Assembly: GCF_000012285.1 (NCBI RefSeq)
Contig: NC_007181.1
Location: 330,001 to 362,000, forward strand
Length of the DNA: 32,000 nt
Reading direction: 5' to 3'
Origin: Sulfolobus acidocaldarius DSM 639
GTDB lineage: Archaea; Thermoproteota; Thermoprotei_A; Sulfolobales; Sulfolobaceae
Under the pieces are notes generated by a model. The model saw nothing but the letters and a program-made list of their open reading frames with translations. It was not told the origin of the DNA and searched no databases. Below are positions 8,070-24,502 of the stretch, one piece after another (positions within the stretch are counted from its first letter, which is position 1; the number at the start of each line of letters is the position of its first letter). Both the position numbers and the translations under genes were made by a program.

Positions 8070-8867
8070 TTATGCTTCATCAACTACTTTCTTTTTCGGT
8101 CTAAATGAATGTGCATGGGAAGGATCGTACACACTAGACCTTATTTGATCCTTATATCTGTTTGGATCTGCAACCTTACCCACAATAATCATACTGTCCT
8201 TCGTCAACTTTTCAGCCTTAACTTTCTGAGCTATATCACCAACTGTTCCTTTGAGTATCTTCTGCTCAGGCCACGTTGCTTTGTATACTACAATTACTGG
8301 CATATCGTCAGGTACTCCTCCCTCTTTCAGTTCCCTAACTACCTTATCTATGAGTTGAACACCTGTATATATTGCCATTGAAGCACCTTTCATAAGAAAG
8401 GGTGCATAGTCTTTTATTGAACCCTCCATAGGAACTGCACCGGAAGCTCTTGTGATAATAACTGTTTGTGAAATCTTAGGTAAGGTTAACTCAATACCTA
8501 GAACACTTGCGGTTGCTATTGCAGCAGTTATCCCGGGAACTAATTCATAAGGTATTCCTGCATCTTGCAGAGCCCAAATCTCCTCTATAAGGGCGCCATA
8601 TATGGAAAAGTCTCCGGATTTTAACCTAGCTATTAACTTTCCCTCGTTGGCTTTCTTTATCATTATATCAGTTATCTCCTCCAAAGTTAAGCTTGCTGTA
8701 TTTACTATTTCAGCGTCCTTCCTAGCCCACTTTAATACTTGAGGATTAACTAATGATCCAGCGTAAAGTACTACATCAGCGTCCTCTATAACGTTTTTAG
8801 CTCTTACAGTAATAAGTTCAGGATCTCCGGGACCTGCACCTATGAAAACAACTTTACCCTTTTTCAT
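8070..8867 (-). CDS. cbiF: cobalt-precorrin-4 C11-methyltransferase
   Basis: VVFIGAGPGDPELITVRA...VVLYAGSLVNPQVL is the CbiF/CobM-specific YAGSLV signature within the class III tetrapyrrole methylase fold. Confidence 0.9.
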   Translation of the reverse strand: MKKGKVVFIGAGPGDPELITVRAKNVIEDADVVLYAGSLVNPQVLKWARKDAEIVNTASLTLEEITDIMIKKANEGKLIARLKSGDFSIYGALIEEIWALQDAGIPYELVPGITAAIATASVLGIELTLPKISQTVIITRASGAVPMEGSIKDYAPFLMKGASMAIYTGVQLIDKVVRELKEGGVPDDMPVIVVYKATWPEQKILKGTVGDIAQKVKAEKLTKDSMIIVGKVADPNRYKDQIRSSVYDPSHAHSFRPKKKVVDEA

Positions 8868-9525
8868 TATTTCTCACCTTACATATCAACATTGAAAAAT
8901 AATCTTTATCGTACTCATTTTCACTCCACGGTATAACCTTCTCCCCGTCTAAATAACACCTCCTTGCATACAGAAGATCATAGTCGTCTTTAAGTTCCTC
9001 CGATATTTTGTCCAAGTTCTCATTACCCTTCAATACTATGATGGTCTCAAAGTCCTGTTTAACCTTTGAAATCAGATCTAATCGGTCAGCGGGAATAATT
9101 GCTATAGCCTCATTTCTTAAGGCTAAAGGCATGAAAGCCTTTGAAGCACATGCAGTTATAGACGAAACACCGGGGACAATCTCAACACTATTAAAACATC
9201 CAAGATAATTACTTACCCTAAAAAATGTACTGTATAGGGAGGGGTCTCCAAGAGTAACAAAAGCCGAGAGAGACTTAGATTTACTACAAATTTCCTCTCC
9301 TATTCTTTCCAAATCCTTTGGGTCAACGTCCTTTTTCATTGGAAAACCCAAAGTGACTATCTCTGCCTTACTGTACTTCTCCACTATACTCAAGGCTAAG
9401 CTCCTGTTAGTGCCAGTTGAATAGGGCACAAAAACGACCTCAGCTTTACTTAGAATTTCCGAACCCCTTACAGTTATCAGATTTGGATCTCCAGGACCTA
9501 AACCTATAACATACAACTGTCTCAT
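8854..9525 (-). CDS. cbiL: cobalt-factor II (precorrin-2) C20-methyltransferase
   Basis: LYVIGLGPGDPNLITVRG...VVFVPYS..., 223 aa. Tetrapyrrole methylase of the CbiL/CobI type. Overlaps cbiT and cbiF at both ends. Confidence 0.85.
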   Translation of the reverse strand: MRQLYVIGLGPGDPNLITVRGSEILSKAEVVFVPYSTGTNRSLALSIVEKYSKAEIVTLGFPMKKDVDPKDLERIGEEICSKSKSLSAFVTLGDPSLYSTFFRVSNYLGCFNSVEIVPGVSSITACASKAFMPLALRNEAIAIIPADRLDLISKVKQDFETIIVLKGNENLDKISEELKDDYDLLYARRCYLDGEKVIPWSENEYDKDYFSMLICKVRNNEKG

Positions 9526-10100
9526 TTTTTCTCACCATATATTATGAAAATTGGGTTTCTTGAAATCATAGCATATCCCTTGCTCGTTTTCATTCCCTTT
9601 GCAACTATTACTTCAATCACTTCAGCCTTATAGCCTAATTCGCTGAGAGTGTGTAAAGCCTTTACTGCACTTTCAATCAGAATGGCATCAAGGACAATCA
9701 TACCTCCCCTTCTAATCTTTTCACTAACAACAGGTATGATTTCTTCTAACCTTTCAGTACCACCTATGAATGCAGAGTCAAGTTCATCATTTATTTTATT
9801 CAATACCTCTGGTGCTTCACCCTCAATAATCTCCACGTTTCTAAGGGAGAATTTCTCCACATTTTTCCTTGTAAGTTCCACAGCCTGAGGATCCCTCTCA
9901 ACAGCATACACTTTACCCTTCTCCCCAACAATTAGCCCTGCCTCTACAGAAACACTACCTGTTCCACTGCCCACATCTAGGAACTTTGCACCGTAGAATA
10001 GCCTAGCCTTGGAAAGAGCTAAAACTCTTATCTCCTCCTTAGTCATAGGGATCTTCTCCTCTCTTATAAATTCCTCATCAGGGATACCTGGGACTCTCAT
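9522..10100 (-). CDS. cbiT: cobalt-precorrin-6B C15-methyltransferase (decarboxylating)
   Basis: GIPDEEFIREEKIPMTKEEIRVLALSKARL....FLDVGSGTGSVSVEA is the classic CbiT N-terminus plus a class I SAM-binding motif. Confidence 0.9.
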   Translation of the reverse strand: MRVPGIPDEEFIREEKIPMTKEEIRVLALSKARLFYGAKFLDVGSGTGSVSVEAGLIVGEKGKVYAVERDPQAVELTRKNVEKFSLRNVEIIEGEAPEVLNKINDELDSAFIGGTERLEEIIPVVSEKIRRGGMIVLDAILIESAVKALHTLSELGYKAEVIEVIVAKGMKTSKGYAMISRNPIFIIYGEKK

Positions 10101-11164
10101 ACTTCACCACTCTTTGCCATAATTTTACCATCCTCAGAGATAACTACAACTCCTAATTTTAATTTACTCACTCTTTTTAGTTTCTCGAGTGCTCTATCTG
10201 ATACCACTTTCATAACCTTCTGCCGTTCTTCATCTGTGAGATATGATAACCCCTCTGAGATGGAAAGGGATTTCACTATTTTTTGGATTTTTTCCAGGGA
10301 AATGCCTGCTACTACCGACGAGAAAGTCAAAGTCTCTAACCTTGCGTCACCGAATTTACTGTGAGTGTTTAGCATTCCTGCAGCTACCTTAACGAGTTTT
10401 CCGGGTAAACTAACAAGAATCACTTGAGAAAACCCTAACTCCTCAGCTACCTTTAACGATGAACCTACGTTGTCCCCTATCTTGATGACTTTATCACCGT
10501 AAATTTCCCTAGCGAACTTAAAACTAGTATTCCCTGGAGCAAGGACTAAAGTTTTATGACCTGTACTTTTTACTACACACGCTTCAGACTTTATATGCTC
10601 GATATAATCCTCATCACTTACAGGATATTCAATTCCTGTAGTACCAAGTATTGAAATACCTCCTTCAACTCCAACTAAAGGGTTCATAGTGTTCTTTGCC
10701 AACTCCTCTCCCTTAGGTACATATAATTTTACGTAAACACCAGAACTTACCACTTCCTTTACAGCGTCAATAATCATCTGTTTAGCTATTGGACTAATGG
10801 ATTTATCTCCCACATCTCCTTTAAGTCCAGGTCTAGTTATTGTGCCCACCCCTTCTTCTGCTGTAATGGTTATAGTCTGAGAGTTACTCCTACCTGAACA
10901 CGCAATAATTTCAAGACCGTCAAGTATATCAGGATTGTCCCCAGAAAACTTCTTTGCAGAGGCACAAAACTCACTCTCTTTTCTACTGTAATTTCCCACT
11001 GATATCTCTAGTCTCAGACCAATAGGCGTTGGGATGGTGACAGTTTTTGGTGTTTCGTTTTTAATCAAAAAGATAACTGAAGCCTTTGATGCTGCTGCGG
11101 CAGTTGCACCAGTAGTTATTCCAAATCTCTTAAGTGTTGACATCAAGGCTGTATTTCCTCTCAT
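10097..11164 (-). CDS. cbiD: cobalt-precorrin-5B C1-methyltransferase
   Basis: FGITTGATAAAASKA N-terminal motif and about 350 aa length, typical of CbiD. An alternative start is Met8 (11143). Confidence 0.9.
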   Translation of the reverse strand: MRGNTALMSTLKRFGITTGATAAAASKASVIFLIKNETPKTVTIPTPIGLRLEISVGNYSRKESEFCASAKKFSGDNPDILDGLEIIACSGRSNSQTITITAEEGVGTITRPGLKGDVGDKSISPIAKQMIIDAVKEVVSSGVYVKLYVPKGEELAKNTMNPLVGVEGGISILGTTGIEYPVSDEDYIEHIKSEACVVKSTGHKTLVLAPGNTSFKFAREIYGDKVIKIGDNVGSSLKVAEELGFSQVILVSLPGKLVKVAAGMLNTHSKFGDARLETLTFSSVVAGISLEKIQKIVKSLSISEGLSYLTDEERQKVMKVVSDRALEKLKRVSKLKLGVVVISEDGKIMAKSGEV

Positions 11165-11885
11165 ACCCTCTTGGCGTCAATATTCTATTTCCCCACAAAT
11201 AGCTACGTGAATTCCCAACAACCACTGTAGTAATCATGTTAATTTTATCTTCGTATTCTCTCCAGTTCGAGAGCGTCGTGGTAAATACCTCTTCTGACTC
11301 CCTATAAGCACCTTTCACTATTCCCACTGGAGTCTCAGGCTTCCTATACTCTGAAATAATTTTCATGGCTTTTTCAAGAAGAGGCTTATTTATAGGGTTA
11401 TACAGGACTATTACAAAATCTGCCTCTGCAGCTTTTCTCACCCTGAATAGGATATCCTCCGCAGGGACTAGTAAGTCACTCAGACTAATTGAGGCGAAAT
11501 CCATTGATAGCGGTGAACCAAGTCTAGATGCTGCAGCTAACCCTGCAGTAACACCGGGAATTACCTCAAAGTCTACCTGAATTTTATTCTTATACATCAT
11601 TTCCAAAGTAATTCCAGCCATTCCGTAAACTTGTGGATCGCCACTTGAAATAAGAGAGACAACATTTCCTTCCATGGCTTTTTCCAAGGCTGTTCTAGCC
11701 CTATAGATCTCCTCTTTCATTCTGGCAGTTATGACTTCCTTACCGTCAGTTAGGTCTTTCACTAAATCAGCATAAGTGGTGTAAGCAACGATTACATTAC
11801 TCTCCTTTATGGCTTGAACTGCTCTAATCGTTCTCATCTCTGGTGAACCAGGACCTACACCAACAATATACAATTTGCCCTTCAT
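11130..11885 (-). CDS. cbiH: cobalt-factor III (precorrin-3B) C17-methyltransferase
   Basis: KLYIVGVGPGSPEMRTIRAVQAIKESNVIVAYTTYADLV is the CbiH/CobJ pattern (GPG, then xYxxY). Confidence 0.9.
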   Translation of the reverse strand: MKGKLYIVGVGPGSPEMRTIRAVQAIKESNVIVAYTTYADLVKDLTDGKEVITARMKEEIYRARTALEKAMEGNVVSLISSGDPQVYGMAGITLEMMYKNKIQVDFEVIPGVTAGLAAASRLGSPLSMDFASISLSDLLVPAEDILFRVRKAAEADFVIVLYNPINKPLLEKAMKIISEYRKPETPVGIVKGAYRESEEVFTTTLSNWREYEDKINMITTVVVGNSRSYLWGNRILTPRGYERKYSLDVNT

Positions 11886-12883
11886 ATCCTGACCCTCCTA
11901 ATTAGTTCATTAATTATTGCAACTGCAATATTACTTCCACCATAACTTCCCCTTACTACTATACATGGAATACCACTTTTTATCAGTTGTTCTTTTACTT
12001 CGCTTGCGTTAGTAAATCCTGGAGGAGATGCAACAACTAACGGAATGTCAACCTTTCTTTCCTCATGAATTCTTAACACCTCTAACAAAGCAGTAGGTGC
12101 ATTACCTATTACAACAATCTTTGATGAGTTTAGCCCAAGTCTCATTGCAGCTGCAGTCCTGGTTATACCCATTTTTTTAGCTAATTCTGATGAGTTATCA
12201 AGGTAATTCTCGACCTGTTCCCACCTAATACCGGCTTTCACCATTTTAACATCAGTTAGTATCGATATACCTGATCTCAAAGCTTCTAGACCACTCCCTA
12301 TTGCATCATAAGATATGTATACATGTTTAGCTAATTCAAAGTTCCCAGATGCGTAGACAGCCCTTGCGATTACCTCTAGCTCTTCATCATTAAAAACGCT
12401 GAAAATTTCTCTTAATTTCTCTCTTATCATGTTCATAGTATTTTCCTCAATCTCCTCAGGGTCTTCAATATAATGACCTTCTTCAACGTCCTTAAATGCG
12501 GATTTTATCCTGTAAAAAATAGCAAGTTTAACTAGTTCAGAATCTGCTAAAGGTTTGGTTATATATGCATAAATCCTCTTTCCGTTGTATGTTGTCTCAC
12601 TCCATCTGTAAAAGTCAGAAACGTTTAACTCGCCCATAATGTCATGGGCGACGTGATTTCCCCTGCCGAGAAATGCTAAGGCAAAAATAAAATGATCATA
12701 ACCATGTGATAAAAGTTCATTTAACCGCGTACGCCAATTAGGTTCAGTGAATTCATTATGTGTTAGATAAACTGGAATTCCCAGTTTCCTTTCCACATAC
12801 GATGTGACCTCTCCCATATCTTCAACAAACGTATTCCTTCTAGAACCATGAGTTAAAATTAAAACTGCAGTATTTTCTCGCAT
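11882..12883 (-). CDS. cbiC: fusion protein: small sirohydrochlorin cobaltochelatase (CbiX-S-like) N-domain + cobalt-precorrin-8 methylmutase (CbiC) C-domain
   Basis: N-domain: AVLILTHGSRR...PVYLTHNEF...FIFALAFLGRGNHVAHDI (CbiX-S pattern HGS ... FLxxGxHxxxDI). C-domain: DPEEIEENTMNMI...RAVYASGNFE...ILTDVKMVKAGI...VIGNAPTAL...PPGFTNA.E.K....GIPCIVVRGSYGGSNIA (CbiC/CobH pattern). The start is set at ATG 12883 (Met15 of the listed ORF), which has a TATA-like box at -26. Confidence 0.8.
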   Translation of the reverse strand: MRENTAVLILTHGSRRNTFVEDMGEVTSYVERKLGIPVYLTHNEFTEPNWRTRLNELLSHGYDHFIFALAFLGRGNHVAHDIMGELNVSDFYRWSETTYNGKRIYAYITKPLADSELVKLAIFYRIKSAFKDVEEGHYIEDPEEIEENTMNMIREKLREIFSVFNDEELEVIARAVYASGNFELAKHVYISYDAIGSGLEALRSGISILTDVKMVKAGIRWEQVENYLDNSSELAKKMGITRTAAAMRLGLNSSKIVVIGNAPTALLEVLRIHEERKVDIPLVVASPPGFTNASEVKEQLIKSGIPCIVVRGSYGGSNIAVAIINELIRRVRI

Positions 12884-12905
12884 TATGATGGATAGGGTAT
12901 CCAAA

Positions 12906-12913
12906 CATATAAA
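12906..12913 (-). promoter_or_regulatory. TATA-box candidate for the cbiX::cbiC-cbiH-cbiD-cbiT-cbiL-cbiF operon
   Basis: TTTATATG on the minus strand is centred about 26.5 nt upstream of ATG 12883. Confidence 0.35.
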
Positions 12914-13099
12914 CTTATGGCACAAACACGAATCTCTATAAAATTAAAATCGGAAGCACTATTTATAAAGCGTCATAGATTACATTAGTTACGTTAAGAC
13001 TGTAAAAATTCCCTCTATTTAGTCACATGTAACTTGTTCAGAAAGGCACTCTACATCTTACACATACAATAAACCTGAACTTGTAATCCCTTACCTTGA

Positions 13100-13756
13100 C
13101 TAACTTAATTTTACATAGACTATACTCATGTCACTGAATTTCAAGTCCATATCCAATATTTCCTTTGCCATGAAATGATTAACCTTTTCGTCACTGAAAC
13201 TGAGCCTCTCCATCACAACCATTTCAGGATTTAGACCCAAACCAACTAACCTCTCCGCTATCTTCTTTACTCCATATGAATAAGGTTCTGGGATTATCAA
13301 TAGATCCCTGCCCAAGGCTATACTCTTATCTATTTCAGTGTAATCTAATTCCCCTCTAATATGAAAAGTCATAAAGACTACCTGAGATAAATCCTTCTCA
13401 ACTAAAGCCAAAGCCCTCAATACAGAGGATATCCCAGGTACAACTTCATATTTAACATCAAACTGTCTGCATGATTCCCTGATCCTTCCAACGAACTGAA
13501 AATCAGAGACTGAGGGGTCGCCATGGTCTAATATAGCAACATCTTGTTCTCTGGCTCGTTTTACCAAATCGGGTATTTGCCTATCCTGGTCTTTATAATT
13601 TAGATATACTACCTCTTTTCCTGATAAATTAAATCTAGAAACTACACTCTGCCAACCGGCAACTATTTTACACTTCTCTATAATCTTTAGAGCCTTAAGT
13701 GTTATTAATTCAGGGTCTCCTGCACCTACACCCACTATGTAGAGCGTTTCAAACAC
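13100..13756 (-). CDS. cbiE: cobalt-precorrin-7 C5-methyltransferase
   Basis: LYIVGVGAGDPELITLKALKIIEKCKIVAGW... is a roughly 200-aa tetrapyrrole methylase of the CbiE type. It overlaps the cbiG end by 8 nt. Confidence 0.8.
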   Translation of the reverse strand: MFETLYIVGVGAGDPELITLKALKIIEKCKIVAGWQSVVSRFNLSGKEVVYLNYKDQDRQIPDLVKRAREQDVAILDHGDPSVSDFQFVGRIRESCRQFDVKYEVVPGISSVLRALALVEKDLSQVVFMTFHIRGELDYTEIDKSIALGRDLLIIPEPYSYGVKKIAERLVGLGLNPEMVVMERLSFSDEKVNHFMAKEILDMDLKFSDMSIVYVKLS

Positions 13757-14726
13757 CTGCTATTGCAACTGTTATTTTGCTCTTATAACTTATTTTCCTT
13801 AAGATCAACTTCGCAGAAGGACCTCCTGCTATGAATGCGCTGATCTCAGCTACGCCCTTTATTCCGAGTTCCTCCAATTTCTCACTAGGTGGGGTTAAAC
13901 ATTCGTCATTAAATGAATTTATAGTCTCCCAGTCGATCTTTTGAAACGGAATATTCAGACTTTTAGAGACTTCCTCTACAACCTCCCTTACTGAAGCTAT
14001 CTTCAACACCCTGTCCAATCCTACTTTCAACTGACCTAGAGCAAAATATATTGCCTCCTTAATTTCCTCGACAGAGGCTTCTTTCTTTGCACCTATTCCA
14101 ACATACAATTTCAATGGTCTGAGATAAACAGTGTTGTCGTCACCCATGTTCTCGTTTCCGTCCTTAATAACTTTAACAAAGTACTTACATTCAGCATCTT
14201 TACCTAAAACGTAATTGCCCTTAACTACTGGTAAAGAGTTCACGCCCTCAACACATACCTTTTCTCCCCTAATTAAAGCTGAGGTTACCCTGACTATCGC
14301 GTTAACATTAATCACCTTGCATATTAGTAAATTTGCCAACTCTTCTACGCTAGTCACCTGGTTTATCTCACTTGCTGTGGTTATTACGGGCGTGGCGTTT
14401 AATATTCTGGATATCTCAGAGGCGAGTTGGTTTGAACCCCAGTGGGAGCCCAACAAAGGAATAACAAACTTCAGGGAGTCATCAACTGCAATAACGGAGG
14501 GATCTACGTCTTTACTCTTAGCATACTTACATACAGTCCTTACAACTCCACCTAATGCCATAACGAAAACTAGTGCATCATAACAATTCCAAATCTTGCC
14601 TAACAAATTATCGTCATATTTAAAAAGCACACTTGGGTACTCTTTCTTAATAATGTTCCAGAGCTTTCTTGCACTGTCCTCAGCTGTAGCGTAAATTACT
14701 GCTATCCCTCTCCTCCAGTATATCAC
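13749..14726 (-). CDS. cbiG: cobalt-precorrin-5A hydrolase
   Basis: 325 aa with the three-part CbiG layout: N-terminal IAVIYAT..., middle ...[13 protein letters not shown]..., C-terminal ...[15 protein letters not shown]....L......L..IASV..K..E. GTG start overlaps the upstream stop (GTGA). Confidence 0.8.
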
Positions 14727-15778: not shown

Positions 15779-15827
15779 TCAGTAAGGCCAGGTGCGCTCA
15801 CTAATCGCCTACTGGTGATATCATCAT
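15779..15827 (-). ncRNA. C/D box sRNA candidate overlapping the stop codon of the upstream CDS
   Basis: On the minus strand: perfect C box AUGAUGA (15827-15821), 12-nt spacer UAUCACCAGUAG, degenerate D' GCGA (15808-15805), 3-nt linker, degenerate C' GUGAGCG (15801-15795), 12-nt spacer CACCUGGCCUUA, perfect D box CUGA (15782-15779). Spacing is exactly 12/3/12. Confidence 0.5.
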
Positions 15828-17152
15828 GAAGAGTATACTGTTGCGTAAACTATGCCCCAATTAGCATATGAACCCCCTGTATTTCCGCCTATAGCAAAAG
15901 TGTATTGTCCTGCAGAATATTTAAGACCTACGTTATACGATAGAGTAGCGGTCTCACCACTATTTAAATCAGTAACTTGAGTGTATAACCATCCAGTGGA
16001 TGGGTTATAAGTAGCTTTCATGCAGACGTAAAAGTAATTGGAAGTCTGTTGAATTCCAAAACCGTTATTACCAAGTGGACCATATGGTGTAATACTACTT
16101 ATATACCCATTATTTGACGTTACGTTAAATAAATTGAAAACAGATGCACTACTTGCTCCAGATTCTATCCAATAAGGATCCCATTGTACCATAAAATAAT
16201 CTCCATTAGAATAAGGAAATATTAGTAAACCTTGTGCGTATAGCAATTCGCTTCCTATTGACGGATCTGATACATAATTTACAATACTCCCATTACGAAT
16301 ATATACAGGGTTCATGAAAAAGTAAATTTCGAATCCATCTGCAGGAGTATTTGAACCTGCACCAAAACCTCCAATTAAAAATACAGTAACATTTTTATTT
16401 TGCTGAGTAGTATAATTGAAAAATATTAGACCTTGATCATAGGTTGGTATAACTGAAGACATGCCTGAAGATATGGGTACAACTAATTCTAAGGATTGCT
16501 GATAATAATTTGGTGACCAACCAGACGGAGACGTTATTATGGGAATGTTATTATAATATAATCCGATAATTGACCCAAGTCCATAATAGTCTAATGATCC
16601 CATCTGCCTATCTCCGTCTAGGTAATTGAATATATTAGCTGAAGGCATCTTTGTTAACGAAACAGCCAATTGATAGTTATATATTGAATTTATTGATGTC
16701 GTAAAATTAATGTAAAGATTGTGGGTGAGTGGAAAACTTGTTAACCCGTTTGCAGACTCTAACAGTAAATAATTACCTGAGTAGGCGTTTACTGGTAAGC
16801 TATAAGTCGATGTGGAGTTTCTTAAGTATAGAGAAGCTCCTTGCAAATTAGAGTTGCCATTAACATAAGATTTTGTGGAAAGACTGAAATTAAGAATAGG
16901 AGTGTTCAACAGATTATAACTGTTTTGTGTAGATTGAACTGTGATTGCTGGCACATTTTCACTGTAAACTCCGTTATTAACTGTTGGTGTGATTAAAGAA
17001 GAATAATCTGGCAAACAAGAGTTTACCAAATTTTTCAGAGACACGAGAACAAAGGGTGTAAAAATTAGCTGAGCCTGAAAGAAGTAGTACACAGATGCTG
17101 ACGTTATAACGAGAGCTACAAATAATAGAGGCAACAAGAAGTAACGCCTCAA
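15824..17152 (-). CDS. N-terminally anchored or secreted glycoprotein with a C-terminal legume-lectin/ConA-like domain (putative adhesin)
   Basis: TTG start overlaps the upstream stop (TTGA). Hydrophobic N-terminus MRRYFLLPLLFVALVITSA, Asn/Ser/Tyr-rich composition, and at least 7 N-x-S/T sequons. C-terminal third: ADGFEIYFF...MVQWDPYW...ATYNPSTGWLYTQV...YTFAIGGNTGGSYANWGIVY, resembling L-type lectin beta-sandwich motifs. Confidence 0.7.
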   Translation of the reverse strand: MRRYFLLPLLFVALVITSASVYYFFQAQLIFTPFVLVSLKNLVNSCLPDYSSLITPTVNNGVYSENVPAITVQSTQNSYNLLNTPILNFSLSTKSYVNGNSNLQGASLYLRNSTSTYSLPVNAYSGNYLLLESANGLTSFPLTHNLYINFTTSINSIYNYQLAVSLTKMPSANIFNYLDGDRQMGSLDYYGLGSIIGLYYNNIPIITSPSGWSPNYYQQSLELVVPISSGMSSVIPTYDQGLIFFNYTTQQNKNVTVFLIGGFGAGSNTPADGFEIYFFMNPVYIRNGSIVNYVSDPSIGSELLYAQGLLIFPYSNGDYFMVQWDPYWIESGASSASVFNLFNVTSNNGYISSITPYGPLGNNGFGIQQTSNYFYVCMKATYNPSTGWLYTQVTDLNSGETATLSYNVGLKYSAGQYTFAIGGNTGGSYANWGIVYATVYSS

Positions 17153-17688
17153 GGGGGTACACCCCTAACTAGACTATCAGTCCCATAAGAATAGTACATG
17201 GTCAAGGAAAAACTGGATATCTGATAGGAGCCAGTGAAGTAAACTACAAAACTAACGTTATAAACCTGGTTCTGATAAACCTTTAATGGGGACTGGGAGA
17301 GAGGATAAATAGTATATGTCAAGGTTTTGGTTGAGTTTTTCAATATCATATTTACCTTATATACCATGTTCTGAGAAGCAATTGTCACGTTAGATATGTA
17401 AAAGTATCCATTGGAGTTTACTAATATCTTAAGTACATTCAGAAAATAAGCTTGAGTAGAATTAGTTATATAGAAATATAATGAGACCTTACCTTGAGAA
17501 ATCTGAGAATAAGCAAACTGGCTTACACTTAAGCCCAAAATCACTATCGGCGAATTACGGTATGATATTGTATTTGTAGACGTATAAAAAAGCACGTAAT
17601 CAGATAAGGTAGTCAGAACAAATGAGGACGCAAGCACAAGGACTAATATTAAAAAAACTTTTTTTAGTTTATCCAAAACCCCTGCCAC
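17149..17688 (-). CDS. secreted or anchored pilin-sized glycoprotein, paralogue of the upstream 206-aa protein
   Basis: Hydrophobic N-terminus (KVFLILVLVLASSFVL) and 4 sequons. ITNSTQAYFLNVLKILVNSNGYFYISNV aligns by eye with ITNATYNYYFNFMGLAVSKTGYIYLAKV of the 17699-18319 product. The exact start (GTG 17688 or a nearby TTG) is uncertain. Confidence 0.65.
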   Translation of the reverse strand: MAGVLDKLKKVFLILVLVLASSFVLTTLSDYVLFYTSTNTISYRNSPIVILGLSVSQFAYSQISQGKVSLYFYITNSTQAYFLNVLKILVNSNGYFYISNVTIASQNMVYKVNMILKNSTKTLTYTIYPLSQSPLKVYQNQVYNVSFVVYFTGSYQISSFSLTMYYSYGTDSLVRGVPP

Positions 17689-17698
17689 CTTGTCCTTT

Positions 17699-18319
17699 TT
17701 ATGGTGAGGGTAGAGGTATAGGTGGTGGAGATGCTGTCATTGGCGAAAATCCGAAGTTGACTGTTATTGTAGCTAGATCATTAGAGGGAGTCTTTGGCAG
17801 GGTTCCCTGATATGGAACTATTAGTAGGCTCACGATGTAACTCCCAGAATTAATTTGTAATGGGGTGCTAGGTAGGGTACTGTTAACTACACCATTCACG
17901 ATTAATTTATATTTGTAGACAATTTGCCCTTGTTGATTCATTATATATAGTGTGGCATTCTGAATAGGATTATTAGTTGCTGTATACGAATATGCTACTT
18001 TTGCTAGATATATATAGCCTGTCTTGCTAACCGCTAATCCCATAAAGTTGAAGTAGTAATTGTACGTTGCATTCGTGATATTTACTTGAGCAGTAAATCC
18101 GCTTCCGCCAGAGGAGGGTTGAGCATTAATATAACTTGGAACATTAGAGTTATTTCCAATTTTAGCGTTACCATTTGGCTGTATCGCAAAATACATTGGT
18201 GGGGCTACATTACCGACAGTTATTTGCCCTTGGTAGTAGTAAATTACGTCTGCAACTAGCACTGGAACAAAAACAGATACAAGAAATACCGACAACAGAA
18301 GAAGTCTCTTCTTATTCAT
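17699..18319 (-). CDS. secreted pilin-sized glycoprotein (candidate major filament subunit)
   Basis: Sec-type signal peptide MNKKRLLLLSVFLVSVFVPVLVA|DV (A-x-A-like site after residue 23). The mature N-terminus is a beta-strand-prone DVIYYYQGQITVGNV. About 5 sequons, a beta-rich Asn/Tyr/Thr composition, and a Pro-rich C-terminal tail SPPPIPLPSP. It is the first gene of the operon, with a TATA-like box at -26. Confidence 0.75.
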   Translation of the reverse strand: MNKKRLLLLSVFLVSVFVPVLVADVIYYYQGQITVGNVAPPMYFAIQPNGNAKIGNNSNVPSYINAQPSSGGSGFTAQVNITNATYNYYFNFMGLAVSKTGYIYLAKVAYSYTATNNPIQNATLYIMNQQGQIVYKYKLIVNGVVNSTLPSTPLQINSGSYIVSLLIVPYQGTLPKTPSNDLATITVNFGFSPMTASPPPIPLPSP

Positions 18320-18340
18320 AATGCTCTACTGGACTACCTA

Positions 18341-18350
18341 TTTTTAAATT
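18341..18350 (-). promoter_or_regulatory. TATA-box candidate for the three-gene surface-protein operon
   Basis: AATTTAAAAA on the minus strand is centred about 26.5 nt upstream of ATG 18319. Confidence 0.4.
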
Positions 18351-18650: not shown

Positions 18651-19482
18651 TTAGGTTTGATAATCTATTACCATAGTTAGATTGAACTCCTTTAAAATTT
18701 GGTCACCGTTTGGTAGTTCATATTTTAATAAAATAGTTATGCCGGCTGTATATATCTCTCTACTCTCTAAAGATGAAATGTGAAAAGGATTGTAACTTAG
18801 TTTTATGGGTATTTTTAGGTAGTTTGCACCCTGTATAAGTGAGATGTTAAGGTACTTTATACTGTTGTTTAATGGAACAGACATAGCGGCTACAACTTCA
18901 TTATTAGTGTTGTCATTTATGTAGGCATTTTCAACATACTCTAGGGTACCATTCAAAGGCGTTATAATCCTTAAGAAAAAATATACCATAAGTTCCATTA
19001 AATGAAACGTTGTAAAGGTTAGCCACTAATATGATCTCTGGCTTTACCAGGTCACTGAAAGAGATATAAAATTTTGTAAAATTATACTCTCCCCCAATAA
19101 TGCCAGAAATTTGTACATTAGTTGAGTTGACCACATACTCAAATAGATTTGAAGTTATGGGTAACGTTATGTTAAATTCCCTTACAGAATGAGGAGGAAC
19201 TAACATTCCAGGGGATACAGAATAATTCCCTACTCCAGGAATAAAGACATAACCATTCATAAGAGGAATGTATGTGGAGATGGTGTTGTTCGCAATTAGC
19301 GATATTATAGTCTCATTACCGTACATCCCTATACCCATGACCTTTATATAAGGAGGTAAATTGGAAAACGTAACTACCCTTGCTAGTTTTTGCTGATAAA
19401 ATGTTATAAAAATAGAAGCTACTAGTGTAACAACTAAAATTAATATAAATATCCTGTAATAGATGTTGGTACTTGAAACCAT
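18651..19482 (-). pseudogene. split (frameshifted) gene for an N-terminally anchored, sequon-rich extracellular protein
   Basis: ORFs 18931-19482 (183 aa, N-terminal TM IFILILVVTLVASIFITF, 8 sequons) and 18651-18998 (115 aa, 4 sequons, no signal or TM of its own) overlap by 68 nt in frames offset by +1. The overlap contains a T6 run on the coding strand (18976-18981). Together they would encode a protein of about 275 aa. Confidence 0.55.
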
Positions 19483-19692: not shown

Positions 19693-20493
19693 ATGCGGAC
19701 AGAGTCTATCATATCGTTAATTATAGCTTTAGTCACCCTAGTATGCCTGTTTCTTATACCTGTGATGGGCTTATCGACTTACACTTATAGCATTAAAGTT
19801 ATGGGATTTTTAATGAGTGTAAGCTTTTACAACGTTAATTATACTATACTAATTCCTTCAATGGTTGCAACAATTGTCTTTGTAGCCCTGTCTGGTATAG
19901 TTCCCCTGTTTTGGAAGTCCAGGTATTCACTATACACATCTTTTGCTTTTTCAGTTTTATCCATTTCAATGCTGGTTGTTACTTATATTTGGGTCAGTAG
20001 GTACTTCCTTGTTAACAATTACCTGGTTGTACCTACAGAAAATGGAGTATTCTATCAGTTGTCCTCCTATAATTTAACCTTAGGATTCTCATCTTATTTA
20101 CTCTTTATAAATGCTTACTTTGATGGTATGAACGCAATATCTAGAAGTACATGGTTAGATAGGTTAATAGGTAGAAAAGGAACATACATTGATCTAGTAA
20201 TCGGCATAGCTAAGACATATAACATCCCATATCAAAAGACTGAGGACGGTGTAATAGTAGGTAATGACATTTTAATTACACAGGGTAACATAAATCATGA
20301 TAAGTTAGAGTCTAAAGAGATCAAGAAAATGTATATAATCAAGGATTCACATATTTTTCTCATAGATACCAGTAAAGGTGAACATGATCCACAGTTATTT
20401 GAGCTGAAAGAGGGAGTGAAAAGAATTTTGTCGGATATTGTGGAAAAAGTAGGGGATAAGATAAACATCATGTATAAGGATGACTATCCTTGA
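19693..20493 (+). CDS. hypothetical membrane protein (about 5 N-terminal TM helices plus a roughly 110-aa cytoplasmic-looking C-domain)
   Basis: Hydrophobic segments run through about residue 150, then a charged soluble region (RKGTYIDLVIGIAKTYNIPYQKTEDG...KEGVKRILSDIVEKV). I recognise no family. It is divergent from the split surface-protein gene. Confidence 0.6.
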   Translation: MRTESIISLIIALVTLVCLFLIPVMGLSTYTYSIKVMGFLMSVSFYNVNYTILIPSMVATIVFVALSGIVPLFWKSRYSLYTSFAFSVLSISMLVVTYIWVSRYFLVNNYLVVPTENGVFYQLSSYNLTLGFSSYLLFINAYFDGMNAISRSTWLDRLIGRKGTYIDLVIGIAKTYNIPYQKTEDGVIVGNDILITQGNINHDKLESKEIKKMYIIKDSHIFLIDTSKGEHDPQLFELKEGVKRILSDIVEKVGDKINIMYKDDYP

Positions 20494-20532: not shown

Positions 20533-21552
20533 GTGAAAGCCGTAATTATTGAAAATGGCAGAGCGTCAATAAAGGATATGGATAAACCTTCAATCAAGGA
20601 AAAAGGAGATATTATAATAAAGATGAAAGCCTGTGGGCTATGTGGTACTGATATCGAAAAACTTCGCGGACAATACACAGCGTCTCAGCCAATTATAGGT
20701 CATGAACCATCAGGGATCATTGAGGAGTCAAGTGTAGATAGTCTAAAACCCGGTCAGAGAGTATTCGCACATCATCACGTTCCTTGTTATGAGTGTTATT
20801 ATTGCACTCATGGAAGTGCAACCATGTGTCCTCACTATAGAAGGACTAATATTGAGCCCGGAGGTTTTGCAGAATACTTTAGAGTCCCAGCCTGGAATGT
20901 GAAAAGGGGAGGTGTACTAGTTCTTCCTGATCATGTTAGTTTTGAGGAAGGAGCCTTCATTGAACCTTTGGCAACTGTTGTAAGAGCACAAAGGAGGGTC
21001 AAGTTAAACAGAGGAGATAATGTGTTGGTAGTAGGAGCAGGACCTATGGGATTGCTCCACGTAATGCTAAGTAAGGTAAATGGAGCCTCTAAAACCATAG
21101 TAACTGACATAGCAGATTTTAGGGTTGAGTATGCTTATAAAGTAGGGGCTGATTACTCATTTAATTCTAAAAAGATAGACACTATAAATGAGGTTAAGAA
21201 ACTAACAGACGGTAGAGGAGTGGATATAGCTATTATAGCTTCAGGCGCACCTTCAGCAATCTTATCAGGTCTTCTCTCTGTAAGAAAAGGAGGTCAAGTT
21301 CTCCTGTTTGGAGTTCCATTTAAGGGTACTGTCCTGAACTATGATATAAGTGATCTCTTAAACAACGAAATCTCAATAATCTCAAGTAATGCCGCTATTG
21401 AAGAAGATACTGTAGATGCGTTGAAAATAATATCTGAGAGAAAAATAGACGTTTCCAAACTAGTAACCCATAAATTTACTATTGACCAGTTCAATGAAGC
21501 CGTAAGGGTAGCTGAAGAGGGACAAGCCATAAAGGTAATAATACAAGATTGA
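20533..21552 (+). CDS. zinc-dependent medium-chain alcohol/polyol dehydrogenase (threonine/sorbitol dehydrogenase-like subfamily)
   Basis: Catalytic Zn ligands CGLCGTD...GHEPSGII, structural Zn loop CYECYYCTHGSATMC (C-x2-C-x2-C-x7-C), and Rossmann motif VVGAGPMGL. GTG start. Confidence 0.9.
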   Translation: MKAVIIENGRASIKDMDKPSIKEKGDIIIKMKACGLCGTDIEKLRGQYTASQPIIGHEPSGIIEESSVDSLKPGQRVFAHHHVPCYECYYCTHGSATMCPHYRRTNIEPGGFAEYFRVPAWNVKRGGVLVLPDHVSFEEGAFIEPLATVVRAQRRVKLNRGDNVLVVGAGPMGLLHVMLSKVNGASKTIVTDIADFRVEYAYKVGADYSFNSKKIDTINEVKKLTDGRGVDIAIIASGAPSAILSGLLSVRKGGQVLLFGVPFKGTVLNYDISDLLNNEISIISSNAAIEEDTVDALKIISERKIDVSKLVTHKFTIDQFNEAVRVAEEGQAIKVIIQD

Positions 21553-22395
21553 AAAAATAGCGAGAAAGAGGATTAGAGTCACTTTAAATAGATTTAGGGC
21601 AATTTTCACGTGGTTATCTTCTGGTAAATTCCATCCATTTAAACCCACGTTATAAAATCCAATTTTTTCTAACCGGACGTTTAGTATTGATGAAGCAAAT
21701 GAGATGGGATATTTAGCATTGGGGCTCTCTATTTTGCTCTCTTTCAGTATCCTTAGAGTGCTTTTTGGTCTTAACCCTAAAAGATATGCTGATAATAACA
21801 TCAACAAGGCAGTTATTCTGGCTGGGATGTAGTTTAAAATAGTATCTAATTTAGCGGAGAACCATCCCTGTTCCCTGTACTCAGGTGTCTTATATCCGAC
21901 CATGCTATCCATGGTATTCGCTAACCTTTGTAATAATGCACCTGGATAGCCTAAAACGAGAAACCAAAATATTGGGGATATTATTCCATCTACAGTACTT
22001 TCAAATAATGACTCTATTACGGCAGATCTAACGTGACCCTCACTTAACTCATAAACATTTCTCCTGACTAACTGCTGTGAGTATGACCTACTGTAAGTGG
22101 TAACAGGTGTGCTCTTCTTGACCAACGAATATAGTAACTTAATGGAAAAGGTGGTCTTTAGAAAAATGACCAGTAGTGGTAGTTCTACATACCAAGGAAA
22201 GTATAAAGGTATACAGAGGATGAACAGAATCGGAACGACAGACACTATCCAGAAGAATATTCCATAAAACCTGTTGGAGAAAGGTTTTATTAATCTAGAT
22301 GATATTTTCCCTACCCATACTACAGGATGTATTATAACTGGAGGTTCCCCTAAGGTAAGGTCAAAGAGTATTGAAAGATAAAGTAATGGTAACAA
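21460..22395 (-). CDS. cbiB: adenosylcobinamide-phosphate synthase
   Basis: N-terminal LFDLTLGEPPVIIHPVVWVGK (the CbiB/CobD GEP...HPV..G motif), multi-TM, 311 aa. The 3' end overlaps the convergent dehydrogenase gene by 93 nt. Confidence 0.9.
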   Translation of the reverse strand: MLPLLYLSILFDLTLGEPPVIIHPVVWVGKISSRLIKPFSNRFYGIFFWIVSVVPILFILCIPLYFPWYVELPLLVIFLKTTFSIKLLYSLVKKSTPVTTYSRSYSQQLVRRNVYELSEGHVRSAVIESLFESTVDGIISPIFWFLVLGYPGALLQRLANTMDSMVGYKTPEYREQGWFSAKLDTILNYIPARITALLMLLSAYLLGLRPKSTLRILKESKIESPNAKYPISFASSILNVRLEKIGFYNVGLNGWNLPEDNHVKIALNLFKVTLILFLAIFSILYYYLYGLSLFSYPYGFIELVNSKFMGY

Positions 22396-23108
22396 GTCTT
22401 CTCAGCAACTAGTAAGTAAATTGGAAAAGATAAAGTTATAATAGCTCCTACTATATCGCCTGACATCCCGTCAAAAACTAACTTAGCCATTAGGTAGAAC
22501 ACGAGAAGTAGGATAACGTAAGCCAAGATAAGTACAGGTGATGAGAAGAGTATTGCAAATACTTGTACGAGGAGGAATTTAATAGAGAATAGTTTGTCCC
22601 TCATTTTATCATGAAACACTTTTCCCAGATAACTACCGGGAATCGGCTTCATTAGACCTAGAAGGGATATTGCGCTTGCCCTCGCTAGAACCTCGGATGG
22701 GAGGAAGAACCACAGATTGCTTACATTCAAGTTAAGTGTAGCTATAAGAAATATAGAAAAATAAACTAAAAATAGACCTATAGCCCCCGACCCGGTCTGT
22801 AGATCATGAAGAACTTGCGGTCTTCTCTCCTTTCCCACCATCAATGCGTCCCCCATGTCCAATAGACCATCCAAATGGTGAAATCCCCTAATTATCTCCA
22901 CTGTAGGTATTAGTAGAAGAGCACCTAAGCTACCTATAAGCCTTATACCTAACAAGACAACAAACCAGTCTATTATACCTGTAATTATACCGACCATGAG
23001 TGGCGAGATGAAGGAGAACTCTGCTATCTCCTCTAAAGACGCACTCGGAGAAGGTATTATCGTGAAAAATGATAGTTGCCCTAATATTGCCTTTAATATC
23101 CTCCCCAT
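22350..23108 (-). CDS. cobS: adenosylcobinamide-GDP ribazoletransferase (cobalamin synthase)
   Basis: LGQLSFFTIIP N-terminal CobS motif, ...HLDGLLDMGDAL... motif, and about 6 TM helices. Overlaps the cbiB start by 46 nt. Confidence 0.9.
   Translation of the reverse strand: MGRILKAILGQLSFFTIIPSPSASLEEIAEFSFISPLMVGIITGIIDWFVVLLGIRLIGSLGALLLIPTVEIIRGFHHLDGLLDMGDALMVGKERRPQVLHDLQTGSGAIGLFLVYFSIFLIATLNLNVSNLWFFLPSEVLARASAISLLGLMKPIPGSYLGKVFHDKMRDKLFSIKFLLVQVFAILFSSPVLILAYVILLLVFYLMAKLVFDGMSGDIVGAIITLSFPIYLLVAEKTCYHYFIFQYSLTLP
23092..23099 (+). promoter_or_regulatory. TATA-box candidate for cobQ, embedded in the first codons of divergent cobS
   Basis: TTTAATAT is centred about 27.5 nt upstream of ATG 23123 and lies inside the cobS CDS. 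Confidence 0.3.
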
Positions 23109-23122
23109 AGGAATTAGTTATA

Positions 23123-24502
23123 ATGGCAGTTATAATAGCTTCCACAATGAGTGACTCAGGAAAATCCACAATTGTGACGGGCTTAAGCAAACTATTTCAT
23201 GTTAAACCTTTTAAAGCCCAAAACATGTCCCTGAATAGTTATGCAACATTAGATTATGGGGAGATAGCTTTTATTCAGGCTTATCAATCTATTGGCGCAG
23301 GTTTTTCCCCTGAGAGATATATGAACCCGTTATTACTTAAACCATCAGGTAACGGATTGTTAGAGGTCATCTTTTTTGGTGAATCGAAGGGTCTATTTAG
23401 ACCTCAAGACTACTATTCAACACTCAATTATTTTTGGACTGAAATAGAGAAAAATTTCTCTAATGAATTTATTGTAGAATCTGCTGGTGGTATAGAGCCA
23501 AATTTTTTAGATAAAGATTTAGCATTAAAAGTCTCTGCTAATTTTAACGTTCCAATTATTTTAGTTCTCGATATAGATAGGGGCGGAGCTTTCACATCAG
23601 CATTGGGATCTTATTTATCCTTGCCTGTTTCTTTGAGGGAAAAATTAAGGGGTTTTATAATAAATAAGTTTAGGGGAGATGAAAAGTTCCTGGAACCAGG
23701 GATAAAGTGGGTTGAGGAGAGAACAAATATGAAATACTTAGGCAGCTTACCGTATTTCGAGGAACCATTAATAATGCCAGAGGACTCCATGAACCTCAAT
23801 GAGGTAGGAAACGGAGAAATGGAGGTTAGTATAATAGCTTATCCGCAGATGAGCAATTTCAATGAGTTCTATGCCCTAAATAACTCTAATGCTCACCTTA
23901 AATTTGTAAAGAAACCTACGCAAATAACTGATTCAGACCTAGTGATCTTACCAGGTAGCAAAAATACAATAAAGAGTTTAGAGTGGCTTAAGAGCAGAGG
24001 CTTTACTGATTTCCTAAAGAGGAAACCCGTTCTCGGTATATGTGGGGGATTTCAGATCATGGGGAGTAAAATGATTGATAATAGTGGAGGACTAGAACTT
24101 GGAGATGTTAATCAGGTGGATGGACTAGGATTATTCGGAATTAACACTGTGTACGAGAAGGAAAAAGTCGTGAGTTTATCATCAGCCCAGTTAGGAATAG
24201 AGGGGTATGAAATAAGGAGAGGAAGAATAGAATACATCAATGAAGAGCCTCTAACCTACATCACGAGAAGAGGGAAAATGACGGTTTATGTGCCAGATGG
24301 AGTACTTAAAGGAGATAAGTTAGGTCTAAGTATTCATGGCTCCATGTTCTCCCCAGGAGGAAAGAAGGTTCTTAGCGAGGTATTTGGTCTTAAAATATAT
24401 GCTGAGGATTTGGAAACTGAAATAAAAAAGCAGGTAGATAATCTCTCACGCGTCTTAAAGCAACACGTAGATGTAGATAAAATTTATGAGCTATACATTT
24501 AA
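23123..24502 (+). CDS. cobQ: cobyric acid synthase
   Basis: N-terminal P-loop-like STMSDSGKSTIVTGL (CobQ/CbiP/DTBS-like domain) and a C-terminal GATase-like domain with GICGGFQIMG. Confidence 0.9.
   Translation: MAVIIASTMSDSGKSTIVTGLSKLFHVKPFKAQNMSLNSYATLDYGEIAFIQAYQSIGAGFSPERYMNPLLLKPSGNGLLEVIFFGESKGLFRPQDYYSTLNYFWTEIEKNFSNEFIVESAGGIEPNFLDKDLALKVSANFNVPIILVLDIDRGGAFTSALGSYLSLPVSLREKLRGFIINKFRGDEKFLEPGIKWVEERTNMKYLGSLPYFEEPLIMPEDSMNLNEVGNGEMEVSIIAYPQMSNFNEFYALNNSNAHLKFVKKPTQITDSDLVILPGSKNTIKSLEWLKSRGFTDFLKRKPVLGICGGFQIMGSKMIDNSGGLELGDVNQVDGLGLFGINTVYEKEKVVSLSSAQLGIEGYEIRRGRIEYINEEPLTYITRRGKMTVYVPDGVLKGDKLGLSIHGSMFSPGGKKVLSEVFGLKIYAEDLETEIKKQVDNLSRVLKQHVDVDKIYELYI

Follow-up and report, generated by a model that had tools for sequence, protein, structure and literature searches.

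The thread-filament locus of Sulfolobus acidocaldarius and its third gene, saci_0404, encoding a protein with a predicted lectin fold and a putative thread-type tail

What do three tightly packed genes of Sulfolobus acidocaldarius DSM 639 build together, and what part might the last of them, saci_0404, play? We analysed a stretch of 32,000 nucleotides (nt) from this organism (NC_007181.1, positions 330,001 to 362,000; hereafter the window, in whose positions all coordinates are given), in which these genes all lie on the minus strand:

17699-18319, minus strand: saci_0406, major thread subunit, 206 amino acids (aa) from an ATG start
17149-17688, minus strand: saci_0405, subunit paralogue, put forward in print as a putative cap; 179 aa if started at GTG, 175 aa at the TTG of codon 5
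15824-17152, minus strand: saci_0404, 442 aa from TTG, with a signal peptide, a thread-type tail, a beta-rich middle and an L-type lectin-like domain, as predicted

A preliminary description of the window, made from the sequence alone, had proposed a non-type-IV filament with an adhesin, reminiscent of the thread of S. acidocaldarius. The resemblance proved to be identity. The 206-aa product was 100% identical, over its full length, to PDB 7PNB chain A ('S. acidocaldarius 0406 filament'; E=1.4e-129), and its residues 24-206 were 100% identical to 8RZL_C. It was also 100% identical to an NCBI protein of S. acidocaldarius, as was the 442-aa product to another NCBI protein. The sequence identity thus makes this region the published thread cluster saci_0406-saci_0405-saci_0404 (Gaines et al., Nat Commun 2022, 2024; arCOG10215). 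The filament, the subunit structure, the donor-strand and isopeptide chemistry and the putative cap are already known, and finding the locus is a correct rediscovery. A thread cluster working by the published mechanism is very probably the best overall explanation; the part of Saci_0404 is graded on its own.

Beyond the published work, the analysis adds three things on Saci_0404: a lectin-fold assignment, a probable thread-type tail and a conserved linkage to thread clusters. They point to Saci_0404 as a third strand-donating protein, a lectin-bearing terminal subunit that would be a likely adhesin and tip-first start unit, a proposal that we judge almost evenly balanced between right and wrong. 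We found no lectin-bearing or adhesin reading of Saci_0404 in the papers searched.

The locus and the published thread

Threads are PibD-independent filaments of Saci_0406 (PMC11607397), and their assembly needs no type-IV machinery (PMC9715654). Saci_0406 is exported by Sec, and its signal peptide is removed before Asp24; the donor strand of subunit n completes the beta-sheet of subunit n-1 and extends to n-2, where the alpha-amine of Asp24 appears to be joined to Asn57 by an isopeptide bond; and five Asn residues carry N-glycans (PMC9715654). The first seven mature residues, including the YYY motif, are conserved in the arCOG10215 family, threads are lost in the 0405/0406 double deletion, and threads form cables and traverse S-layer pores (PMC9715654, PMC11607397). 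Thread and S-layer proteins are heavily N-glycosylated. The corresponding features were found in the window:

18251-18319, minus strand: Saci_0406 signal peptide for Sec and signal peptidase I (SPase I), residues 1-23, cut after LVA (8RZL chain begins at Asp24; PMC9715654)
18176-18250, minus strand: Saci_0406 N-terminal tail and donor strand, Asp24 to about Pro48, DVIYYYQGQITVGNV... (PMC9715654; tail conserved across the family)

The cleavage predicted earlier after LVA at residue 23 therefore agreed with the solved filament chain, which starts at Asp24 (8RZL), and the mature N-terminal strand that had been suggested to act as a donor strand is the published one (DVIYYY...; PMC9715654). The earlier reading as a non-type-IV donor-strand filament is borne out by the identity of Saci_0406 and by that study; that the lectin protein is an adhesin we only infer. 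Residues A23, D24, V25, I26, Y27, Y28, Y29 and G31 were invariant among close Saci_0406 relatives, the isopeptide acceptor N57 was present, and N-x-S/T sequons lay at positions 56, 80, 83, 121 and 146. A word-based homologue search with 0406 returned two S. acidocaldarius proteins only, and the family was built from an exhaustive HMMER search, which gave 23 representatives among 1.84 billion proteins.

The packing of the three genes was as had been described. Read from the sequence, the gap between saci_0406 and saci_0405 is 10 nt (17689-17698), and saci_0405 and saci_0404 overlap by 4 nt (TTGA, 17149-17152). Strain SUSAZ (L009; loci other than our own carry an L number) retains both the 0405 GTG start 10 nt past the 0406 stop and the 0405/0404 overlap. 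The TATA-like box reported ahead of the first gene was also present:

18339-18350, minus strand: TATA-like AATTTAAAAATA, its centre some 25 nt ahead of the saci_0406 start codon ATG
17651-17657, minus strand: T7 run in the first saci_0405 codons, 42 nt past the saci_0406 stop

The spacing from TATA-like box to ATG suggests a leaderless or near-leaderless saci_0406 mRNA. RNA-seq cited in PMC9715654 indicated one promoter for 0406 and 0405, with 0405 co-transcribed at a lower RNA level. The T7 run may be an oligo-T attenuator that reduces the 0405/0404 transcript relative to 0406; such attenuation, if real, would account for the lower RNA level of 0405. SUSAZ is likewise T-rich at this site, as judged from its Lys-Lys-Phe-Phe codons.

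Segment, sequon and composition counts agreed with the earlier account of hydrophobic N-termini, many sequons and products rich in Asn, Tyr, Thr and Ser. Each of the three products has one N-terminal hydrophobic segment, and they contain 5 (0406), 4 (0405) and 7 (0404) sequons, or 1.6-2.4 per 100 aa against 0-1.2 in the flanking enzyme and transporter genes. Their N+Y+T+S fraction was 0.34-0.40, compared with 0.14-0.27 in the other open reading frames (ORFs) of at least 150 aa outside the thread cluster; Saci_0408 reached 0.32. The G+C content of the window is about 32-42%.

The kinship of the 179-aa and 206-aa products, earlier aligned by eye, was supported by BLASTP (23% identity over 133 aa, E=2e-5), and each of the two cross-matched the other's homologue in L002 (E of about 1e-5 and 2e-6). 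The predicted cut in Saci_0405 falls between TLS and DYVLFY. The protein is conserved in SUSAZ and L002, and searches with it of Pfam, NCBIfam and PDB sequences (phmmer/hmmsearch) gave nothing above noise. In the published AlphaFold2 (AF2) fold, Saci_0405 resembles 0406, with a tail but no acceptor site, and was proposed to be a cap (PMC9715654). With a tail and no acceptor groove, it is predicted to sit only at the groove end of the filament, as a cap.

The predicted tail and lectin-like domain of Saci_0404

Three segments of Saci_0404 carry the argument on its function:

17096-17152, minus strand: predicted signal peptide MRRYFLLPLLFVALVITSA, cut after TSA (hydrophobic segment, Arg-Arg n-region, small residues at -3/-1)
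17018-17095, minus strand: thread-like tail SVYYFFQAQLIFTPFV..., residues 20-45 (profile-profile comparison)
15827-16435, minus strand: L-type (legume-like) lectin-fold domain, residues about 240-442 (AF2, Foldseek, hhalign)

The signal peptide depends on the start codon. The TTGA overlap holds only if the TTG at 17152 is the start of saci_0404, and the NCBI product, of 437 aa, begins five codons downstream, at a second TTG. The upstream TTG adds MRRYF (17138-17152, minus strand), the sole positively charged n-region for this signal peptide. The longer form is kept in SUSAZ, and in L002 the TTG start of the 0404 homologue directly abuts the stop of the 0405 homologue. We prefer the longer form because of the Arg-Arg n-region and this conservation in SUSAZ and L002; the public start call is probably five codons short.

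The signal peptide of Saci_0404 aligned with those of its homologues and of the thread family. Cleavage after TSA would expose SVYYFFQAQLIF as the mature start, and the L002 homologue begins, after TNS, with SVIYYYQNNITF. Metagenome homologues of 0404 begin with M.R.RWLLA...LA followed, beyond the cut, by DVVFNYxGQVxIKPTSSP, which closely resembles a thread signal peptide and tail. Profiles of the thread and 0404 families matched with E=3e-7 over 45 columns when the signal peptide was included. Mature-only profiles still matched (E=2.5e-4 over 26 columns), with mature position 1 on position 1. The matches of a hidden Markov model (HMM) of the tail only in metagenome 0404 homologues fell precisely on residues 24-47 (E 8e-4 to 3e-2). 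With the whole thread HMM, which contains the signal peptide, the 0404-homologue ORF itself was matched in 22 of 43 loci. The preliminary description had placed the link between the 206-aa and 442-aa products elsewhere, in a segment YNY...LAVS.TK. That link was not supported: BLASTP gave E=0.16 and profiles of the globular parts E=0.24 over 10 columns, and profile-profile comparison located the similarity of 0406 and 0404 at the N-terminal strand instead.

The tails of 0404 homologues (DVVFNYxGQ, SVIYYYQ, HVVFVYxA) resemble those of their cognate subunits, with 6-8 of 14 residues in common in loci that encode both. In some lineages the two tails covary: a His start comes with a Gly-to-Ala change in L022 and L038, and 'Y.I[RK]SP' is found in L050 and L092. 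Two such pairs are:

L022: thread subunit tail HLIFVYEAQATVKPV; 0404-homologue tail HVVFVYRATITVKPV
L092: thread subunit tail DVIFVYTGTINAYNIRSP; 0404-homologue tail DVVFTYIGLINVYVIKSP

A tail of this kind was also seen in another protein. In Candidatus (Ca.) Rehaiarchaeum fermentans, the gene for the thread subunit is immediately preceded by a 251-aa ORF (L008:401-1156, plus strand), which continues after LTNA with SVIYYYQGNVNF and matched the tail HMM with E=2e-4; outside the tail, it had no detectable similarity to 0404 or 0405. From its sequence, it may represent another class of tail-bearing accessory subunit.

The lectin-like C-domain noted earlier was upheld by structure prediction. Homologues of Saci_0404 were few (12, rising to 18 with a profile search), and the AF2 model was built on the 18-sequence alignment. 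The predicted local distance difference test (pLDDT) score was mostly 70-87 over residues of about 240-430, apart from loops of low confidence at 284-304 and a drop at the C-terminal end. The best 50 Foldseek matches of the C-domain in the PDB were all L-type lectins, including legume lectins, VIP36 and Emp47p (E 1.6e-6 to 1.4e-5, probability 1.00, target-normalised template modelling score 0.41-0.57). In an hhalign comparison, the 0404-family C-domain profile matched peanut lectin (sequence verified against 1CIW) with E=1.1e-3 over 100 columns and in the expected register, pairing VQWDP with VEFDT, TYNPSTGWL with IYDSSTKTL and FAIGGNTG with FGFSASGS.

Legume lectins carry the hallmarks ADG.AFF, VEFDT, IYD..T..L.V, GFSA.TG and W.F, in this order. 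The conserved motifs of the 0404 family, PADGFEIYFF, VQWDPYW, TYNPSTGWL..V, FAIGGNTGG and ANWGIVY, follow the same order. A271 and G273 were invariant and D272 near-invariant in the 12-sequence alignment, and A271 and G273 were at least 90% conserved in the 18-sequence alignment; the Asp of ADG and that of VxxD are both conserved in the family. These data support an L-type lectin fold for the modelled C-domain, with sugar binding a putative property only.

The same lectin-like domain also heads far longer proteins (500-1100 aa), where it is followed by beta-rich extensions of other kinds, in L003:7992-10202 (plus strand; Vulcanisaeta distributa) and in 37 metagenome loci. These long proteins are not encoded beside thread genes, which marks the domain as a mobile module among hot-spring Thermoproteota. 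Weak matches to PA14 and SpaA lay in the C-terminal extensions of longer relatives, under the family cut-offs, and were set aside.

Gene linkage and the placement of Saci_0404

The order of the 0406, 0405 and 0404 homologues is kept in the L001/L002 lineage, with identities of 41%, 37% and 41%. A metagenome scan gave 80 loci. Fifteen of them hold, on one strand and in this order, a thread subunit, a fused 0408/0407, 0409 and a 0404 homologue; in a distant uncultured lineage with this four-gene order, the genes overlap and 0405 is absent. A separate thread gene lay upstream in 17/17 loci that encode a full-length-type 0404 homologue and have at least 2.5 kb of upstream DNA, and in 0/9 loci of lectin-only relatives. 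The 17 loci form two clusters at 70% identity and, together with S. acidocaldarius and L002, make four. A relative in Vulcanisaeta distributa (L003/L004) was rejected as linkage evidence, since it has the lectin domain only, in a different architecture, and no detectable thread gene nearby.

In the loci examined, 0408/0407 and 0409 were the most frequent partners of the subunit; the short L008 contig either lacks them or they escaped detection there, and in L001/L002 they are cut off. Homologues of the 0404 type were frequent, and among these loci 0405 was confined to S. acidocaldarius and the L001/L002 lineage. In one metagenome contig, L011:420-1005 (plus strand), the thread-subunit gene is split over two frames, with signal peptide and tail in one and the head domain in the other, which is probably an assembly or sequencing error rather than biology.

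The two frequent partners lie beside the thread genes in the window:

18651-19482, minus strand: saci_0408 and saci_0407, a single gene in SUSAZ and other lineages
19693-20493, plus strand: polytopic membrane protein of 266 aa whose C-terminal domain is soluble and charged; transcribed divergently, and a conserved member of thread clusters

Here, saci_0408 (183 aa) and saci_0407 (115 aa) overlap by 68 nt. Their equivalent is one gene of 276 aa in SUSAZ and of 254-269 aa elsewhere, and the product has an N-terminal membrane anchor and a glycosylated beta-rich ectodomain. A T-run at 18976-18981, T6 in the window and T5 in SUSAZ, is the one-base frameshift that splits the gene. The extra base may be a true mutation in the reference strain, an artefact of sequencing or a switch that is prone to slippage. 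Derivatives of this strain continue to make threads. The polytopic protein is presumably Saci_0409, by its position. It had no Pfam or NCBIfam match and has homologues in L005, L006, L007, L010 and L011, with E down to 2e-28; a 0409 homologue stands beside the 0404 homologue in 20 of the 80 metagenome loci, usually directly upstream. Its sequence features and linkage make it the leading candidate for a membrane factor in assembly or anchoring.

We propose the following course of events. SPase I would cut Saci_0404 between TSA and SVYYFFQ and so expose its thread-type tail, which would plug the free groove of the terminal Saci_0406. The L-type lectin-like domain would thereby be displayed at the groove end of the thread, and Saci_0404 would be a likely adhesin from which assembly starts, tip first. 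An adhesin should have its lectin end distal; in that case, subunit tails would point toward the cell, as in hypothesis 2 of Gaines et al., and growth would take place at the base. There, the membrane proteins 0408/0407 and 0409 might hold incoming groove-open subunits. The 10-nt gap, the TTGA overlap and the early T7 run in 0405 would hold the minor proteins at low levels compared with the subunit. The whole of this, a terminal adhesin and start unit that fixes polarity together with a conserved four-gene module (subunit, 0408/0407, 0409 and lectin subunit), is tentative, and on balance we doubt that every part of it will hold.

Several results weigh against this proposal. Saci_0404 is placed on threads by inference. 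Its own tail is the most diverged, with 4/14 identities to 0406, and Saci_0404 itself gave no match to the tail-only HMM, so that we rely on the tail evidence at the level of the family. The middle region (about 46-238) scored pLDDT below 50 in the full-length model, as did all of residues 1-238. A separate AF2 model of residues 20-240 had a mean pLDDT of 43.6, with only 79-154 reaching 59-85; a Foldseek search with this low-confidence model returned generic immunoglobulin-like sandwiches (E of at least 0.0096), and 7PNB was not in the top 50. Neither profile-profile comparison nor Foldseek on this poor model found a similarity of the middle region to the thread head, and with such a model a miss is no evidence of absence. 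Gaines et al. called Saci_0404, 0407 and 0408 'elusive' and found their AF2 models, that of Saci_0404 included, 'not conclusive' (PMC9715654, PMC11607397 and the bioRxiv version).

The lectin assignment, for its part, holds at the level of the fold only. No Pfam match at E of 1 or below was obtained for any of the 18 members of the 0404 family and no NCBIfam match, and neither Saci_0404 nor the family profile matched a PDB sequence. Metal and sugar ligand positions can be assigned by analogy with legume lectins in general. By that assignment, the Mn site has an invariant Gln323 in place of its Glu; the Asn of the Asp-Gly-Asn triad, a sugar and Ca ligand, was not evident in the 0404 alignment, and no equivalent of the His was identifiable. 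In the linkage, the 17 loci amount to only two clusters at 70% identity and are not independent. Finally, no homologue of 0404 or 0405 was seen near the thread genes of Acidianus copahuensis, a Sulfolobaceae metagenome-assembled genome (MAG) and Ca. Aramenus; their thread loci do carry homologues of 0408/0407 and 0409.

The lack of a 0404 homologue beside the thread loci of these three Sulfolobales genomes speaks for a different view, in which Saci_0404 stays outside the filament and merely shares its operon, as a secreted or S-layer-associated glycan-binding protein or an enzyme of concanavalin A (ConA) fold. Relatives of the lectin domain occur in other architectures away from thread genes (Vulcanisaeta L003 and nine metagenome loci), the tail of Saci_0404 is weakly similar when taken by itself, and the published AF2 analysis was inconclusive. 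Yet full-length-type homologues follow a thread gene in every informative locus, the thread-type strand coincides with the start of the predicted mature protein and varies along with that of the cognate subunit, and the contact with 0405 is kept, as an overlap in SUSAZ and as abutting genes in L002; we regard this view as somewhat unlikely. The structural evidence serves equally well a reading in which the tail joins Saci_0404 to the filament but at its cell-proximal end or between filaments, where the lectin would bind N-glycans of the S-layer or of threads and anchor the threads or bundle them into cables. Cable formation, the passage through S-layer pores and the heavy N-glycosylation of both partners suit such a function, and published work is compatible with either thread polarity (PMC9715654, PMC11607397). 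For the proximal end, however, conserved membrane-anchored candidates already exist in 0408/0407 and 0409, and we take this placement to be unlikely.

A thread-type strand could also be lent in trans, with Saci_0404 acting as a periplasm-side chaperone or nucleator that serves exported Saci_0406 until strand exchange, like PapD or FimC. Saci_0404 has indeed been 'assumed part of the assembly machinery' (PMC11607397). But a lectin-fold domain would be unexplained in a chaperone, its position in the operon and likely low expression fit poorly with the stoichiometric amounts needed, and its N-terminal amine would presumably risk irreversible isopeptide capture; this function appears quite improbable. 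Hardly credible is a true homology of the cluster with bacterial chaperone-usher pili, whose layout the preliminary description had invoked. The likeness in working stood, in that donor-strand complementation and the arrangement of major, minor and lectin genes resemble fim and pap operons. Common descent did not: no PapD-like chaperone or usher family was found in the cluster genes or the scanned window ORFs, the lectin protein would donate a strand and bears its lectin-like domain C-terminally and with an L-type fold, unlike FimH, and the authors conclude that threads arose independently of chaperone-usher pili (PMC9715654, PMC11607397).

Our preferred placement of Saci_0404, at the groove end of the thread, would have two consequences if true. 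The module would occur in S. acidocaldarius, in a related lineage from metagenomes and in more uncultured lineages represented by metagenome contigs alone, and its adhesin would give a strand where that of chaperone-usher pili receives one. With its predicted lectin fold, its putative thread-type tail and a link to thread genes in all informative loci, Saci_0404 is a concrete candidate that bears on thread assembly, polarity and adhesiveness, and 0408/0407 and 0409, rather than 0405, emerge as the conserved core partners of the subunit.

The surroundings of the cluster were also inspected. The thread cluster, together with genes for an asparaginase and an alcohol dehydrogenase, is flanked on both sides by cobalamin-biosynthesis genes (8070-14726 and 21460-24502), with CbiG, CbiD and precorrin methylases on one flank and CobS, CbiA and a probable CobD (unscanned) on the other; it is thus embedded in an otherwise coherent cob/cbi region. 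Identities to SUSAZ were 84.0% for 0406, 84.5% for 0405, 86.6% for 0404 and 89.5% for 0409, and 96.5% for the alcohol dehydrogenase, 94.0% for the asparaginase and 95.4% each for CbiG and a methylase. The greater divergence of the thread-cluster proteins between strains is as expected of fast-evolving surface proteins.

Comparison with known filament and lectin systems

With the published thread, the agreement is complete, and the locus is the type example of that system: the locus is the same, and signal peptide, DVIYYY tail, Asn57, five sequons, 0405 and the neighbours 0404, 0407 and 0408 all match. Membership among type IV pili or archaella was rejected. In the sequences read, none of the three products has a K/R-G/A motif before its hydrophobic stretch, in line with the class III leader reported missing earlier. 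Pfam and NCBIfam scans of six cluster proteins, ten other window ORFs and the Pfam-annotated SUSAZ neighbours gave no PilB/PilC (T2SSE/T2SSF), as had also been described, and no PapD-like chaperone or usher.

TasA/TapA of Bacillus subtilis and the AbpA bundling pili of Pyrobaculum calidifontis share with threads a strand donation outside the type IV system and an accessory protein proposed as nucleator or cap, and no isopeptide bonds have been reported in archaeal bundling pili (PMC9715654). These systems have no sequence or Pfam relation to the thread proteins. We know of no lectin-bearing accessory in either of them. Sortase pili (Spy0128, and BcpA with tip adhesins) likewise have covalent isopeptide links between subunits and a dedicated tip adhesin that is incorporated first; threads differ from them in having no sortase or sorting signal and in their bond, which joins the N-terminal alpha-amine to an Asn side chain between subunits n and n+2.

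The C-domain of Saci_0404 resembles L-type lectins (peanut lectin, soybean agglutinin, ConA, VIP36, Emp47p) in fold and in the motifs ADG..(F/Y)F, V-x-(F/W)-D, Y-(D/N)-x-S-T-x-x-L, G-(F/I)-(S/G)-x-x-T-G and a terminal W-x-(F/V), which come in the same order. It differs in being only 11-16% identical to them and in following, within one protein, a thread-type tail and a middle domain of some 190 aa.

Chaperone-usher pili (FimA-FimH, PapA-PapG) offer the closest parallel in design: Sec-exported subunits, an N-terminal donor strand that completes the neighbour's sheet, minor subunits, and at the operon's end a gene for a lectin-bearing protein of two parts. Threads have no outer membrane to cross, are joined by isopeptide bonds and are heavily N-glycosylated. 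Assignment to this class was rejected, as the cluster has no chaperone, no usher and an inverted adhesin layout. FimH has an N-terminal lectin domain and only accepts a strand, whereas Saci_0404 has a C-terminal lectin-like domain and would donate its N-terminal tail. With the adhesin layout thus reversed relative to FimH, the implied polarity of the thread would be inverted as well.

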